The notes beneath the pieces were generated by a model. That model saw nothing but the letters and a program-made list of their open reading frames with translations, did not search any database and had not been told where the DNA came from. Positions 3,487-47,900 of a stretch of 64,000 nt of DNA are shown here, in pieces. The stretch's first letter is position 1; each line of letters begins with the position of its first letter. The position numbers and the translations under genes are program-made. The stretch is from the NCBI GenBank assembly GCA_037308085.1, contig CP147779.1, positions 480,001-544,000 of the forward strand, read 5' to 3'. The DNA comes from Promethearchaeati archaeon SRVP18_Atabeyarchaeia-1 (lineage in GTDB: Archaea > Asgardarchaeota > Atabeyarchaeia > Atabeyarchaeales > Atabeyarchaeaceae).

Positions 3487-4386
3487 TTAGATAGAGAGTA
3501 TCATGAATACCACTATCGGAACCGCTCCTATCAAGCTAGTTATTGGGAGACCCGGCAAGAACTCCCTTTTTTTCAGGAGCTGCAGCGTCAAGATAGAACC
3601 TATGATAATACCTACTATTGAGAAAATGCAGGCAATCAAACCAAACTGCGTCTCAGCGAGGGAAATGAGCATAGAATAGATGCCAAGGTCTCCAAGACCG
3701 ATCTCCCAGTCGCTGGATACGTAGCTAAGACCAGGAATCACTTCCTGCCGATCCTTTGAGACTTTCACGATCTCCTTTATTGGACCACTCCTGACAGAGT
3801 ATATGTCGTAGATCGAGATCCCCATCACCATCAGAAGACCCGTCCAGAGTGGCAGAGTTGTACCAAGTAGAGTACCTATTCCGCCACCATACACCACTGC
3901 AGCCAGGTTTTTTGCTCCTTGGGAGACCCGCGTGCTTAGTATAATATAGACTAGTATTATGTTCAGAGCCAAACCCAGCGGAATCGCTATCATGAATGCG
4001 TTTTCACTCTGAAGATTGCCGACCGTGACCATCAGCGCACTTCCAATAATGATTGAGAATATTGTAGAACCCGCCAAGACGAAACCTGTTCCGATAAATG
4101 CCTTCAAAAGGAGTTGCCTTCGCTTCCTCAAAATAAAGAGAATAACGAATCCACCAATGAGAGGAAGCACCGAAAGGATTATCGCATTTATGCCGGCTGC
4201 AAAGATTCCGCCTTCCGATTCAGGCACAAACTCGATCGGAGCGAGAACAATGGCGCTTATGGTCAGGTAAGTAAAGATCGCTGAAAACACGACAGAAGCC
4301 ACAATAGGCTTCATAAACGGAACCGCTCTACCGGCTTTAGCATTCTGCCTATCGTCCTTCGACCGCGAATTACCCAAACCAATCAT
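3487..4386 (-). CDS. Presenilin-family intramembrane aspartyl protease
   Basis: Multi-TM; YD (SIYDIYSV), GLGD and LPGLP motifs. Confidence 0.88.
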   Translation of the reverse strand: MIGLGNSRSKDDRQNAKAGRAVPFMKPIVASVVFSAIFTYLTISAIVLAPIEFVPESEGGIFAAGINAIILSVLPLIGGFVILFILRKRRQLLLKAFIGTGFVLAGSTIFSIIIGSALMVTVGNLQSENAFMIAIPLGLALNIILVYIILSTRVSQGAKNLAAVVYGGGIGTLLGTTLPLWTGLLMVMGISIYDIYSVRSGPIKEIVKVSKDRQEVIPGLSYVSSDWEIGLGDLGIYSMLISLAETQFGLIACIFSIVGIIIGSILTLQLLKKREFLPGLPITSLIGAVPIVVFMILSI

Positions 4387-4474
4387 CTCATTGCCGATCG
4401 GTGATTACTGGCTTTACCTCTTGTTAATATAAGCCTGACCGGTATAATAATCATAGCAGGGGGTCTATTAGCGG

Positions 4475-4813
4475 GTGGTAAAGCATCTCGCAAGCAAGCT
4501 ACTGAGAGTACCTATTCTTGATGACGAGAGCCAGAGGATTGGCAGATTGAGTGACATCCTCGTCGAAACGCGCACAGGCAACTTGACGTATCTTGTCATC
4601 GATAAGGTTGACTCTCAGACCTTTCTTGAAATCGTGCAACAGCTGCCAACTGGGGAATCGGTCATACCCGTTTCCGTTGCGAAGCTTGGCGATGACTCAG
4701 TAATCGTAGACGCGAAGAAACTAAAGCTACTGTCTTTGAAGAAGAGCTTGAAGAAAAGGGCCTTTTTGGCGAAGAGTGCCGGCACCAGTCAAACTGGTGA
4801 AAGCCCGCACTAA
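4475..4813 (+). CDS. PRC-barrel domain protein
   Basis: IGRLSDILVETRTGNLTYLV pattern; IPVS..KLGDDSVIV. Confidence 0.75.
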   Translation: MVKHLASKLLRVPILDDESQRIGRLSDILVETRTGNLTYLVIDKVDSQTFLEIVQQLPTGESVIPVSVAKLGDDSVIVDAKKLKLLSLKKSLKKRAFLAKSAGTSQTGESPH

Positions 4814-7177: not shown

Positions 7178-8468
7178 GTGGAAGAATACGCTGTCAAAGA
7201 CTTAAGCCTAGCACCTCAAGGACATAGCAAAATAGATTGGGCGGAATCTCACATGCCAGTTCTCATGATAATTCGTGAACGATTCGCAAAAGAGAAGCCA
7301 CTGGCTGGCAAGAGAGTATCAGCTTGTCTTCACGTAACCAAAGAGACGGCCGTGCTAGCAAGGACGCTCCGCGCGGGTGGAGCCAAGGTCGCGCTGTGCG
7401 CATCCAATCCTTTGTCGACGCAAGACGATGTTGCAGCCGCTTTGGCCAACGAGGGTTTCAACGTATATGCTTGGAGAGGCCAGAATACAGAGGAATACTA
7501 TGATTGCGTAAACAACGTGCTTAACTACGCCCCTAATATCACTCTGGACGACGGGGCTGACCTGATCACAAGCATTCACACGAAACGCCAAGAACTATTC
7601 AAAGGAGTGATAGGTGGATGCGAAGAAACTACTACTGGCGTAATCCGACTCAGGGCCATGGCAAAGCAGAAAGTCCTCAAATACCCAGTGATAGCTGTCA
7701 ATGATGCACAGACCAAATGGTTCTTTGACAACCGCTATGGAACTGGGCAAAGTAGCATCGACGGAATATTGCGGTCGACCTCGGTTCTACTTGCTGGAAC
7801 AAAAGCAGTTGTCGCCGGGTACGGTTGGTGCGGGAGAGGGATAGCGACTCGATTGAAAGGTATGGGATGCAGGGTGATTATCTCTGAGGTAAACCCCCTA
7901 AGAGCTCTTGAAGCAGTGATGGATGGGTTTGACGTAATGCCCATGTCTGATGCAGCAAGACAAGCAAGACTTTTCGTGACGTCCACTGGAGACAAGAAGG
8001 TGATAACAAGGGAGCATATAGACGCCATGCAGGATGGATCAATACTTGCTAATGCTGGGCACTTCAACGTCGAAATATGGGTTCCTGACCTTGAGAGTTT
8101 GTCTGTAAAGAAGAGAGAGATAAGGTCGAACGTCGAGGAATACACCCTAAAGGATGGACGACGAATATACCTATTGGCTGAAGGGAGACTCGTCAATCTG
8201 GCTGCGGCTGAGGGGCACCCCAGTGTTTGCTTCAGCAGTAACTAGCTGGGCAACTGGACAGGTCATGGATATGAGCTTCTCAGATCAAGCTCTCTCAGCT
8301 GAATACCTAGCTAAGGAAGGAAAAACACTGAAACCAGAGGTCTACCTTGTTCCGGCAAGAATAGACAATCTCGTCGCCGAATTGAAGTTGGAGTCGATGG
8401 GGATCAAGATAGACAAACTGACAGAGGAGCAGAAGGAGTACTCGCAAGGATGGACTGAGGGGACATAG
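7178..8468 (+). CDS. ahcY: S-adenosylhomocysteine hydrolase, two exons (7178-8225 and 8260-8468), 418 aa after splicing
   Basis: [47 protein letters not shown]|EVMDMSF; the frame break is explained exactly by a 34-nt BHB intron. Confidence 0.95.
8226..8259 (+). other. BHB-type mRNA intron in ahcY (34 nt)
   Basis: h ACC/GGT, central helix CCAG/CTGG, bulges TG^T and AC^A, inner stem TTGC/GCAA plus CAGC/GCTG; excision joins G+AG into a Glu codon. Confidence 0.9.
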
Positions 8469-27699: not shown

Positions 27700-27804
27700 G
27701 GGCCCGTGGCCTAGTCAGGATAGGGCGCCAGCCTCCTAACTCATTTCTCCCCGCAAACCGGAGAGAGCTGGTGGTCGAGGGTTCAATTCCCTCCGGGCCC
27801 GCCA
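27700..27804 (+). tRNA. tRNA-Arg(CCT) with canonical 37/38 intron (27739-27765)
   Basis: GGGCCCG/CGGGCCC+GCCA; CCAGC/GCTGG stem; BHB helix CTCC/GGAG. Confidence 0.93.
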
Positions 27805-44904: not shown

Positions 44905-47900
44905 TTGTCATCGCGCGTTCCAAAGATCATTGAGAAGATCAGATTTGGATTCTTGTCACCAGACGAGATCAGAAAACTCTCAGTAACTAGGATAATTACG
45001 GCCGACACATATGATGAGGATGGGTTGCCAATAGACTCAGGCCTAATGGACTCCAGACTCGGCACGGTTGAGCCTGGGAGAAGATGCAAGACTTGCGGTA
45101 ACCGCGTGGGAGACTGCCCAGGGCACTTCGGTCACATCGAGCTAGCGAGGCCAGTAATACATGTTGGATTCAACAAGTTGATCTACAAAGCATTGAGGGT
45201 GACCTGTAGGAAGTGCAGCAGGGTTCTGCTCAAAGACGAGGAGCTGGAGAAGTTCAAGAAGGAAATGGAGTCATGGGAGAAAACCTGGAACACGCTAAGC
45301 GAAGATATTACCGATGAGGTTGTGAAGCGCGCTATCCGTGTGGCTGAGTGTCCCCATTGTCAAGAGGCCCAACGCAAGATAGGCTTCGAGAAGCCCACCT
45401 CCTATACTGAGGAGACTGAAGCGGGACCAGTGAGGCTCACCCCGAGCGACATTAGAGACAGGCTGGAGCGAATTCCAGATGAAGACGAAAAGCTGTTGGG
45501 CATCAATCCGAAGCATGCCAGACTTGAATGGACGGTTCTGACTGTCCTCCCAGTCCCTCCGATAACTGTCCGTCCATCAATCACGCTGGAGTCCGGCGTG
45601 AGGTCCGAAGATGATTTGACGCACAAGCTGGTGGATGTTGCAAGAATAAACCAGAGGCTTAAGGAGAACATTGATGCCGGTGCCCCGCAACTCATCGTTG
45701 AAGATTTGTGGGAGCTACTGCAGTATCACGTGATAACCTATTTTGATAATGAAGTATCGGGTATACCGCCCGCGCGGCACAGGTCCGGACGGGCGCTGAG
45801 AACCTTGGCTCAGCGCCTCAAAGGCAAAGAAGGTCGATTTAGGAGCAACCTCTCGGGGAAGCGCGTTGACTTCTCAGCCAGAACAGTCATCTCTCCAGAT
45901 CCAAACATCAGCATCAATGAAGTAGGCGTGCCTTACGATGTGGCCAAGATCCTCACCATCCCAGAAAGGATAACTAATTGGAACATCGAAGAGGAGAAGC
46001 GCCTAGTCAGAAACGGTCCAGACAAGCACCCAGGCGCGAACTACGTGATCCGCCTAGACGGCAGAAGAGTGGATCTGAGGTTTGTAAAGGATCTCGACTC
46101 AATTGCAGATACCATCGAACCAGGATTCATAGTGGAACGCCACCTCAAAGAAGGCGACACCGTTCTATTCAACAGGCAACCATCACTTCACAGAATGTCC
46201 ATCATGGCCCATGAAGTTCGAGTCATGCCGTTCAAGACTTTTAGGCTGAACCTCTGCGTCTGCCTATCTGGAGACACCGAACTGTACACCGATCTCGGCA
46301 GAGTTCCTATTGCTGGGCTTGCCAGAGACAACCTTGACTGCGCGCCGCTTTCCTGCGACTGGCAGAAGAACAAGGAAGCGTACTTCTCTGGAATAGCCAG
46401 TCTTCACGTCGTTGATCCCAAGAGGCTAGGCCTGAAGTCGTACCAGATCACAACCGAGAACGGGCGAGTCATAAGAGCCACAGCGGAACATCCATTCTAC
46501 ACTATGCGCGGAATTGTCAAGGCGGGAGAATTGAAATGCGAAGACTCGGTAGTAGTCTATCCAATTGAAATCCCGCTTGCAGGTGGATGCCCTGACATTC
46601 TCACTCAAGAACAAATCATAAATGCCTTACCCGACCACACTTACACGCGCTATACAGTGACTCAACTCAATGCCATGGGTCTCACCGATGTATCAGCCGA
46701 CTCAGGCAAACAAATCCGGCTTGCCAGCCTTGTTGGGCATCTGTTTGGAGATGGCACTCTCCTTATTGGAGAAGAAGGTGGCCGCGTTGTTTTCCGCGCC
46801 GCAGATATGAAGGACATTCGCAGTCTCTGGGAGACTGCCCAAAGCCTCAATCTTAGCCCGACGGCCATCGAAGAATCCAAGCCAGGGGAGTTCAATATTA
46901 CTCGTGCTGATGGCAAGATACTAAAACCGCGAGGCAAGACGTACATCTTCGAAGTTAGGCGGAAACCCGTTGCGGTAGCTTTCAAGGCATTGGGCGTGCC
47001 TGAGGGCGATAAGGTAGCTCAGGAGTACAGGGTTCCGAAATGGCTGAACGATGCTCCAAAAATGGCTAGACGCGCTTTCCTTAGGGCATATTTCGGGTGC
47101 GAACTCTCTACACCCCGCCTTCACACTAGCTCAGGTTCCAAGTTTAACCAGCCTGTTTTCAAGATTACTAAGGTCGAGGGTTTGTCTGTTGAGCTCTTCT
47201 TGCAGGATATTCAAGCATTACTAGACGATTTTGGCGTTCATTTATCTTCAATTACATCGGAAGACGGCAACCTAAGGAAAGAGGGTAGGAAATCCATTAC
47301 CTATGTCTGTAACTTCGCCGACAACGATGACAACCTCTTAGCTCTTTTCAAAAGAATTGGCTATGAGTTTGATCACAAGAAAGAGGAACTTGCTCGGCTT
47401 GCAAGTGAATACATAACAGCCAAGAATAGAGCCAAAGCTAAGGCATCTGCGCACCTCGAAACGGCGCTTGCCCTCAGAAAGCAAGGACTTACCTATGAAG
47501 CCATTGCCAAAGCGATTGGTCATTATTCATGGGCCACTGTTGCCTCTTGGCTGTGGAACGACCGTACAGCTGCAGGATTGCCAGCCAATTTCCCTGATTT
47601 CTACACTTGGAGAAAGTCTGCGGCAAAAGGGCTGAAACAGGGTTTCGCGTGGGACAGGATAACCAACATTGAGGAAATCGAACTACAACGCGCGTATGAT
47701 ATCACGACTACCGATAGTAACCACAACTTTGTTGCCGCAGAGTTCCTCACGAAAAATTGCCCGCCGTATAACGCTGATTTTGATGGGGACGAGATGAATT
47801 TGCATGTTCCTCAGAGTGAGGAGGCGCGTGCTGAGGCGAAGATTCTGATGCGTGTGCAGGAGCAGATTCTCTCACCTAGGTATGGTGGACCAATTATCGG

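Follow-up and report, generated by a model that had tools for sequence, protein, structure and literature searches.

A predicted tRNA-type intron within the coding sequence of the sole adenosylhomocysteinase gene of the Asgard archaeon Atabeyarchaeia-1

The adenosylhomocysteinase gene ahcY of the Asgard archaeon Atabeyarchaeia-1, located near the start of the 64,000-nucleotide (nt) stretch of genome analysed here (the window, to which positions refer unless a contig or locus is named), is divided by 34 nt at 8226-8259 that we regard with high confidence as an archaeal bulge-helix-bulge (BHB) intron. The evidence comprises the motif itself, the register given by protein alignments, conservation and covariation of the insert, selection on both exons and the presence of the splicing enzymes; from that presence and from analogy we infer actual cutting by the endonuclease EndA and joining by the ligase RtcB. 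The gene is single-copy in the closed 2,808,651-bp single-contig genome. The published KEGG Orthology (KO) table assigns adenosylhomocysteinase to gene _508, which follows a K06869 gene and precedes eIF-2 beta (_511). The window has the same order, and this match to the published annotation of Atabeyarchaeia-1 (Ca. Atabeyarchaeum deiterrae, PMC11291895) bears out the Asgard affiliation surmised in the original prediction, which had been made from the letters of the window.

The first open reading frame (ORF) of ahcY spans 7178-8245 on the forward strand in the ORF listing and ends in ...AAAEGHPS followed by VCFSSN and a TAG stop at 8243-8245, while a second frame, open over 8154-8468, holds ...VMDMSF... 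and terminates at a TAG at 8466-8468. The 34 nt thus bring an in-frame TAG 18 nt in, shift the frame by +1 and divide the GHPSEVMD motif. Without them, 1257 coding bases specify a 418-aa adenosylhomocysteinase plus stop, in which G and AG combine into GAG (Glu) and the GHPSEVMD motif is intact. The junction of the predicted spliced mRNA reads CCCAGUG^AGGUCAUG, and the predicted spliced gene around it ...GGGCACCCCAGUG^AGGUCAUGGAUAUG.... Both exons are colinear with protein profiles: exon 1 covers positions 3-350 and exon 2 positions 352-417 of NCBIfam NF004005, and 1-347 and 349-416, respectively, of TIGR00936. The single profile position left between them is in both cases the junction codon. 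Pfam AdoHcyase and AdoHcyase_NAD were matched in the exon-1 region. Spliced translation and profile colinearity therefore confirm what had been claimed for excision of the 34 nt, namely a GAG codon, a restored GHPSEVMDMSF and a protein of 418 aa. The three parts of the gene are:

7178..8225, forward strand: ahcY exon 1, 349 codons plus the G of junction codon GAG (ORF listing, NF004005, TIGR00936, Pfam)
8226..8259, forward strand: predicted BHB intron, 34 nt, with the in-frame TAG at 8243-8245; frame moved by +1
8260..8468, forward strand: ahcY exon 2, AG of the junction codon, 68 codons and the TAG at 8466-8468 (NF004005, TIGR00936, and the ratio of nonsynonymous to synonymous changes, pN/pS)

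The 47 nt at 8217-8263 form a canonical hBHBh' motif, in which two 3-nt bulges (UGU and ACA) on opposite strands surround a 4-bp central helix H (CCAG/CUGG), flanked by a 3-bp outer helix h (ACC/GGU) and a 4-bp inner helix h' (UUGC/GCAA) that is extended by a 5-bp distal stem. This is the minimum-energy fold of the 47 nt save for a one-base register slip (U8 and U11 are both able to pair with A37), and folding within 71 nt of context again yields it as the structure of lowest energy. The sequence check and the 47-nt fold found every coordinate and letter of the originally proposed motif as claimed. Its elements are listed here, with remarks on 11 distinct sequences of the Atabeyarchaeia clade and on G027, a genome of another Asgard family, both treated below:

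8217..8219, forward strand: outer helix h, 5' strand ACC, exonic; pairs with 8261-8263; invariant in the 11 sequences, AUC/GGU in G027
8220..8223, forward strand: central 4-bp helix H, 5' strand CCAG, exonic (Pro-Ser codons); pairs with 8254-8257
8224..8226, forward strand: 5' bulge UGU; predicted cut 8225/8226; in relatives the first base is U/C and the third U/A
8227..8230, forward strand: inner helix h', 5' strand UUGC; pairs with 8250-8253; pairs 16-42 and 18-40 invariant, 17-41 and 19-39 mostly kept
8232..8249, forward strand: distal intron stem-loop; U8232-G8249, CAGC 8233-8236/GCUG 8245-8248, loop 8237-8244
8250..8253, forward strand: inner helix h', 3' strand GCAA (fold and alignment of relatives)
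8254..8257, forward strand: central helix H, 3' strand CUGG, intronic (fold, relatives and G027)
8258..8260, forward strand: 3' bulge ACA; predicted cut 8259/8260
8261..8263, forward strand: outer helix h, 3' strand GGU, exonic (fold and alignment of relatives)

The motif exceeds chance expectation by its geometry and register, not by its energy. Under a strict definition (a 4-bp central helix, a pair of 3-nt bulges, and outer and inner helices of 3 bp or more, G-U pairs included), 89,701 occurrences were counted over 2 strands x 2.81 Mb x 290 lengths, that is, ~5.5e-5 per given site and length, and the ahcY motif falls on the sole site and length that intron-less relatives fix independently. 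In these relatives (Atabeyarchaeia-2 and three metagenome contigs, 78-82% protein identity) the 34 nt are absent exactly between the G and the AG of the Glu codon, the junctions reading CCAGYG^AGGT in L002, L003 and L064 and CCAAGTG^AAGT in Atabeyarchaeia-2 (L071). Cutting after the second base of each bulge picks precisely the 34 nt that the relatives define, and moving the deletion by one base either way yields no Glu. As a positive control of this cut rule, the intron of tRNA-Arg(CCG) of Atabeyarchaeia-1 assigned by ARAGORN (position 40, 13 nt) was identical to that given by the BHB scan.

An insert at the identical site was found in 10 further distinct sequences on 14 independently assembled contigs, which derive from JGI, ENA and Logan samples and the LC30 metagenome-assembled genome, and which carry a 354-355-aa ORF followed by a 65-68-aa AdoHcyase ORF. 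Among protein clusters, the nine nearest (84-100% identity) measure 354-355 aa and a tenth 330 aa, whereas those that follow (81-82% identity) have 418-421 aa. The insert has 34 nt in the relatives and 31 nt in one, with an unchanged frame offset; in L150 the loop of the distal stem is 3 nt shorter. When the 11 sequences were aligned, 97.2% of the cells were paired, versus 7-42% with the partner slid. Substitutions cluster in the bulges, the loop and the internal loop, and two pairs of the distal stem are altered on both sides (U-A/C-G/U-G; C-G to A-U) in L150, L151 and L153. Among relatives the 3' bulge conforms to NNA, its first two bases being free (AC, AG, CC, UC, AU) and the exonic A fixed. 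On the maximum-likelihood tree, intron state has to change twice in the Atabeyarchaeia-like ahcY clade, but a single change suffices if only the well-supported branches are kept.

A profile search for split ahcY genes in 61 genomes of the phylum revealed ahcY in pieces in five further genomes (families f6, f18 and f20), as well as in G020 (f9), where the gene is split near residue 300 and no motif was assigned. In three other Asgard families, canonical introns of 20-191 nt interrupt the codon that is split in Atabeyarchaeia-1, residue 350 on the 418-aa relative. With hyphens separating the motif elements, these are a 31-nt intron in G027 (AUC-CUAG-UGA-GAAGC..GCUUC-CUAG-AAA-GGU), one of 191 nt in Freyarchaeia G037 (ACC-CCAG-UGA-CCACAUGU..GCAUGUGG-CUGG-UAA-GGU) and mini-introns of 20-22 nt in G043, G052 and G060 (ACC-CCAG-CGU-CCCA..UGGG-CUGG-AAA-GGU), and splicing of all of them restores ...EGHPSEVMD.... 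Judged from these sequences, it is the comparison between families that informs on the central helix: G027 encodes Pro by CCU where Atabeyarchaeia-1 has CCC, and its intron strand is CUAG rather than CUGG, a C-G to U-A compensation that spans exon and intron. Covariation, which had been suggested as a check in related ahcY genes, is thus seen both in the two distal pairs changed on both sides and in this pair of H. The Freyarchaeia gene (L326; G037:C1:1875800-1877800, reverse strand) holds three canonical BHB introns of 56, 29 and 191 nt, the first two located near residues 155 and 183 and having an h' of 9 bp each. G028 carries, near residue 183, an in-frame 27-nt intron with a stop, and genus g27 has about four ahcY introns (32, 27, 30 and 20-22 nt); in the G043/G060 genus, those beyond the one at codon 350 lie near residues 185, 296 and 345. 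Their presence is patchy even within genera.

Some observations weigh against an intron in ahcY. RNA data lend it no support: no listed public RNA run contained the stretch, and four runs of the same studies yielded just two contig pieces, short and unrelated, with nothing over the junction, which is no evidence either way. The folding energy of the 47 nt is no better than that of shuffled sequences (z = -1.33; 20 of 200 fold equally well) and scores z = +0.67 in the 71-nt context; not being significant, it was dropped as an argument. Both compensatory distal pairs occur in three related sequences and may represent a single event. Helices h and H never vary within the Atabeyarchaeia clade and are uninformative there, since half of each is fixed by the protein code. 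In the window, furthermore, the exon-2 frame is open across the intron (from 8154), and a +1 product with 11 extra residues is compatible with the sequence.

This last point bears on programmed recoding, in which no splicing occurs and the exon-2 frame is reached during translation, by a +1 shift inside the insert or by a hop across it of the kind known from phage T4 gene 60; we judge it very unlikely. A +1 shift is formally possible in the window, L150, L151 and L153, where the exon-2 frame is open upstream of the exon-1-frame stop. However, in 7 of the 11 distinct variants, under equal purifying selection, an exon-2-frame stop lies downstream of the exon-1-frame stop, so that no single ribosomal shift can join the frames there, and a ribosome that left Ser AGU and landed on the AGC in frame at 8244-8246 would meet UGA in L070 and others. 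Either event would also insert 5-11 unconserved residues into the GHPSEVMD motif, and recoding leaves unexplained both the exact coincidence with the BHB cut sites and the 20-191-nt inserts at the same codon in other families. The cbf5 introns were themselves once taken for frameshifts (PMC2738675), a likeness confined to the raw sequence that brings no sign of frameshifting.

The two halves could also be pseudogene remnants of an ahcY inactivated by a 34-bp insertion, in keeping with the two ORFs given by gene callers, the first of which (_508) alone is annotated in the published KO table. We attach extremely little probability to this reading, and the selection test refutes it: among the 11 distinct sequences, pN/pS in the spliced frame is 0.109 for exon 1 and 0.108 for exon 2 (~0.11 in both halves), at a synonymous divergence (pS) of ~0.74. 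No further frame damage was seen in any of the 11 variants (0/11), and the insert and its structure have been kept over this whole divergence in what is the sole ahcY of a closed genome. The original prediction had pointed to DNA lacking the 34 nt and to a second intact ahcY as signs that would speak against it; the 34 nt are present in many independent assemblies, and the genome holds no second ahcY. It is on these grounds, together with equal selection on the exons, that both decay and a DNA-level artefact fail as explanations. An artefact or mobile element (assembly error, footprint of a miniature inverted-repeat transposable element (MITE) or insertion sequence (IS), group I/II intron or intein) can be practically discounted, even though the genome does hold a MITE-like insert (G000 ~1526450-1526712, G000 denoting Atabeyarchaeia-1) and the window a true intein, for the insert recurs in many independent assemblies, the published genome was checked with long reads (PMC11291895), the 34 nt have neither inverted ends nor a target duplication, nor a second copy in Atabeyarchaeia-1 or Atabeyarchaeia-2, they are far too small for a ribozyme intron and match nothing in Rfam, and, not being in frame, they are no intein.

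A BHB intron would depend on enzymes that the original prediction had presupposed and that a profile search located in the Atabeyarchaeia-1 genome: two PF01974 (EndA) genes above the cut-off, at 202.6 and 624.3 kb of G000, and one PF01139 (RtcB) gene at 1025.5 kb, with relatives in PDB. EndA paralog 1 (209 aa) is closest to chain 3P1Z_B of Aeropyrum pernix and also related to Sulfolobus 2CV8 and Pyrobaculum 2ZYZ_B, all of which we take to be catalytic EndA subunits. Paralog 2 (241 aa) is divergent, lacks the catalytic His by eye and has a beta-like look, the pair apparently corresponding to the alpha/beta two-subunit kind. EndA of Asgard and TACK archaea has been reported as an (alpha beta)2 type of broad specificity with an L1 loop (PMC5829648). 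In the mechanism that we propose, the substrate would be shared equally between exons and intron: exon 1 of the pre-mRNA would supply ACC, CCAG and UG, exon 2 A and GGU, and the intron the CUGG strand of helix H together with the stem-loop. EndA would cut behind the second base of either 3-nt bulge, and RtcB would join the exons, G and AG making the GAG codon for Glu, and probably circularise the intron. The outcome would be an mRNA for the 418-aa enzyme with an intact GHPSEVMD.

To our knowledge, cbf5 has been the only coding sequence known to contain a BHB intron for more than 20 years. Indeed, BHB introns beyond tRNA and rRNA have been described in the cbf5 mRNA of Crenarchaeota and in one Haloferax 5' untranslated region (UTR) (PMC7714728, 2020), and splicing had been confirmed for no gene other than cbf5 (PMC2738675); both papers agree with the earlier citation of cbf5 as the classic archaeal mRNA-intron case. 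We found no report of mRNA BHB introns in Asgard archaea, those of cbf5 included, within an incomplete coverage of the literature. The crenarchaeal cbf5 introns (Watanabe et al. 2002; Yokobori et al. 2009, PMC2738675), for which sizes of 33, 36 and 39 bp are quoted (PMC2738675), resemble that of ahcY in being small BHB introns in a coding frame, placed in a catalytically important conserved motif, hosted by organisms whose EndA has, or in Atabeyarchaeia-1 apparently has, two kinds of subunit, and miscalled as two ORFs or a frameshift. They differ in residing in an RNA-modification enzyme of Thermoproteota rather than a methyl-cycle enzyme of Asgard archaea, and their splicing has proof from reverse transcription PCR, whereas that of ahcY is predicted from sequence. 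The BHB intron in the 5' UTR of Haloferax volcanii HVO_1309 (PMC7714728) also lies outside tRNA and rRNA, in an mRNA on which the tRNA splicing endonuclease acts, but it sits in an untranslated leader, leaves the reading frame uninterrupted and has been demonstrated in vivo and in vitro, unlike the predicted ahcY intron.

Closest to home are the tRNA introns of Atabeyarchaeia and Freyarchaeia (PMC11291895; bioRxiv 10.64898/2026.10.13.758758), which share with the ahcY intron the genomes, the motif and presumably the enzymes. Introns are present in 92-95% of the tRNA genes of the lineage (PMC11291895). Both studies treat tRNA genes only, whereas the ahcY substrate is a messenger RNA; the preprint (10.64898/2026.10.13.758758) contains neither mRNA nor cbf5, and PMC11291895 no mention of adenosylhomocysteinase. 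As assigned by ARAGORN, the tRNA introns measure 11-33 nt and longer, similar to those in mRNAs, and both kinds are scattered patchily over closely related genomes, a pattern suggestive of recurrent gain and loss. In eukaryotes, HAC1/XBP1 mRNA is cut by IRE1 and joined by tRNA ligase or RtcB, with a regulated change of frame. This splicing, mentioned in PMC13149111, parallels the splicing predicted for ahcY in its short coding-region intron, its independence of the spliceosome, joining by a tRNA ligase and the change of frame. It differs in employing IRE1 instead of EndA/TSEN and twin stem-loops instead of a BHB, and in being regulated; nothing in ahcY shows regulation or descent. Rather than a regulatory element, we favour the ahcY intron as a tolerated passenger of a lineage rich in tRNA introns.

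The original prediction had anticipated further such introns elsewhere in the genome, and profile searches and a two-way comparison of the ORFs of Atabeyarchaeia-1 (G000) and Atabeyarchaeia-2 (G002) uncovered at least three more protein genes of Atabeyarchaeia-1 with BHB introns, namely cbf5, gatE and a RuBisCO-like gene. These and related features are:

G000:C1:383798-383838 = L313:1461-1501, and G002:C1:395677-395717, forward strand: cbf5 intron, 41 nt (profile search)
G000:C1:2219068-2219108 = L318:369-409, forward strand: intron of gatE (Glu-tRNA(Gln) amidotransferase subunit E), 41 nt (NF003107)
G000:C1:2712459-2712486 = L310:660-687, and G002:C1:2663481-2663508, reverse strand: intron of the RuBisCO-like gene, 28 nt (ORF comparison)
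G002:C1:919007-919059 = L217:19007-19059, reverse strand: intron of a radical S-adenosylmethionine (radical-SAM) gene, 53 nt, perfect hBHBh' (ORF comparison)
G000:C1:443948-443978 = L311:949-979, and G002:C1:457150-457180, forward strand: insert in a class-I aminoacyl-tRNA synthetase gene, 31 nt
L326; L322, L323, L325; L329: multi-intron ahcY loci of Freyarchaeia, genus g27 and G028, respectively

The cbf5 intron lies in the catalytic Asp codon within a canonical motif (UGGGA-CUCU-AGA-GCC..GGU-GGGG-UAA-UCCUA). Its exons cover positions 6-69 and 71-320 of TIGR00425, splicing gives GHGGTL[D]PRVTG, and H is CUCU/AGAG in Atabeyarchaeia-2 versus CUCU/GGGG in Atabeyarchaeia-1. Of the 20 Asgard families sampled, five (f1, f7, f15, f17 and f18) have a cbf5 that is interrupted around profile position 70, the BHB motif itself having been examined in the two Atabeyarchaeia genomes only. 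In gatE, h' comprises 9 bp, the exons match NF003107 at 3-86 and 88-628, and the site and length of the intron are shared with Atabeyarchaeia-2. The RuBisCO-like intron has the relaxed form in both genomes (H GCGG/CCGU or GCGG/CCGC, h' of 7 bp, h of 1 bp), and its splicing restores GGGIHAHP(D/N)G and ~50 C-terminal residues. The radical-SAM intron of Atabeyarchaeia-2 lies in the CxxxCxxC motif, where it interrupts the Trp codon of CNLTCPWC; in Atabeyarchaeia-1 the orthologous gene (G000 958408-959523, reverse strand) is intact.

Two other inserts were seen in such genes. The RuBisCO-like gene has a second one of 22 nt in Atabeyarchaeia-1 only (G000:C1:2712761-2712782, reverse strand, = L310:962-983), removal of which gives DIAGAISYSPITG; no canonical BHB could be fitted, and the sole BHB-like fold gives an in-frame UGA. 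In both genomes, the class-I aminoacyl-tRNA synthetase is broken after GIDRNG by UAA and 31 nt before (I/L)PIEVQ. Its insert contains a stem with compensatory differences between the genomes (ACCCU/AGGGU vs GUC/GAC), flanked by CGGA direct repeats. Canonical BHB cuts give the wrong frame there, and the insert could be a non-canonical intron or a +1 frameshift site.

A whole-genome scan for the strict BHB, combined with ORF joining, gave 5,776 candidates, the bulk of them gene boundaries or non-coding frames. Of the hits, 120 passed a loose test of the junction against Atabeyarchaeia-2, and among these, as we read them, only ahcY gave a high-identity alignment over nearly the full length (3-81 of 81, 87%), besides several weaker wide alignments. 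Filtering for BHBs kept in both genomes left 376 pairs, mostly trivial conservation, and 16 after coding filters; only gatE was judged a true intron among the latter, and it alone was profile-tested, with confirmation. Profiles resolved a SocA/ParE pair at L320 into two separate genes, and window positions 4271-4810 into a PRC-barrel gene and its upstream ORF. At L319, in an IS607 transposase, the upstream piece has no match and the downstream piece begins at profile position 42.

Other interruptions were likewise set aside. Two ORFs (G000:C1 ~857030-857220, reverse strand) encode an HdrA-like protein whose paralogs are single fused chains of 827 aa. The downstream ORF starts at an ATG behind a GAGGTG ribosome-binding site of its own and contains a TGA in frame within CWK*GYGAAD, probably selenocysteine; on our reading of the sequence this is not an mRNA intron. 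Neither is a 2-nt poly-A frameshift from a motif-free census, nor the MITE-like insert of 266 nt in a YdeI-like gene (G000:C1 ~1526450-1526712, forward strand), which has 15-bp imperfect inverted ends (GGTTCTGTCGAGTCT...). In the PAC2 gene upstream of ahcY, one metagenome contig (L160:900-1080) has a single in-frame TGA for Gly (ILIG*LDNRF), which is a nonsense change or error and not an intron. Inserts of 23-49 nt relative to Atabeyarchaeia-2 appear at G000:C1 ~456650-457680, 259570-259760 and 242790-243060 (reverse-strand ORFs); these stretches are highly conserved at the DNA level and look like rRNA or other RNA genes, and the inserts are probably introns of non-coding RNAs.

Elsewhere in the window, the RNA polymerase subunit A' gene (Rpb1 domain 2) carries a 498-aa in-frame insert (46264-47757, forward strand) that matches Pfam Intein_splicing and is absent from Atabeyarchaeia-2, and is therefore an intein. 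A tRNA-Arg(CCU) gene at 27700-27804 (forward strand) has an Rfam match of 102 nt and a 27-nt intron according to whole-genome ARAGORN; ARAGORN on the window alone gave no tRNA there, and the strict BHB scan no canonical motif.

The ahcY intron is probably the visible part of a wider phenomenon, with several genes per genome, several introns per gene and sites common to Asgard families. It is conceivable, and to us only slightly short of an even chance, that mRNA splicing by endonuclease and ligase is regular in the intron-rich Asgard classes (Atabeyarchaeia, Freyarchaeia/Jordiarchaeia and others), with many split genes, some of them split several times, and with shared sites such as ahcY codon 350 and the cbf5 Asp codon; these sites would then be ancient or repeatedly re-invaded, as the exon sequence itself provides half of the BHB. 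If this holds, the closest prokaryotic relatives of eukaryotes would already have had "genes in pieces" rejoined by a protein enzyme pair, and standard annotation would miscall such genes systematically. A core metabolic gene together with cbf5, gatE and a RuBisCO-like gene appear to carry BHB introns in complete, well-curated Asgard genomes, and gene calls, pathway reconstructions and "pseudogene" counts would be wrong wherever such introns sit in these lineages. An extreme load of tRNA introns that spills into mRNAs would make intron gain, loss and site preference testable with reading-frame read-outs, and would connect, in a concrete and testable way, the tRNA-type splicing of archaea with the maturation of mRNAs in the closest lineage to eukaryotes.

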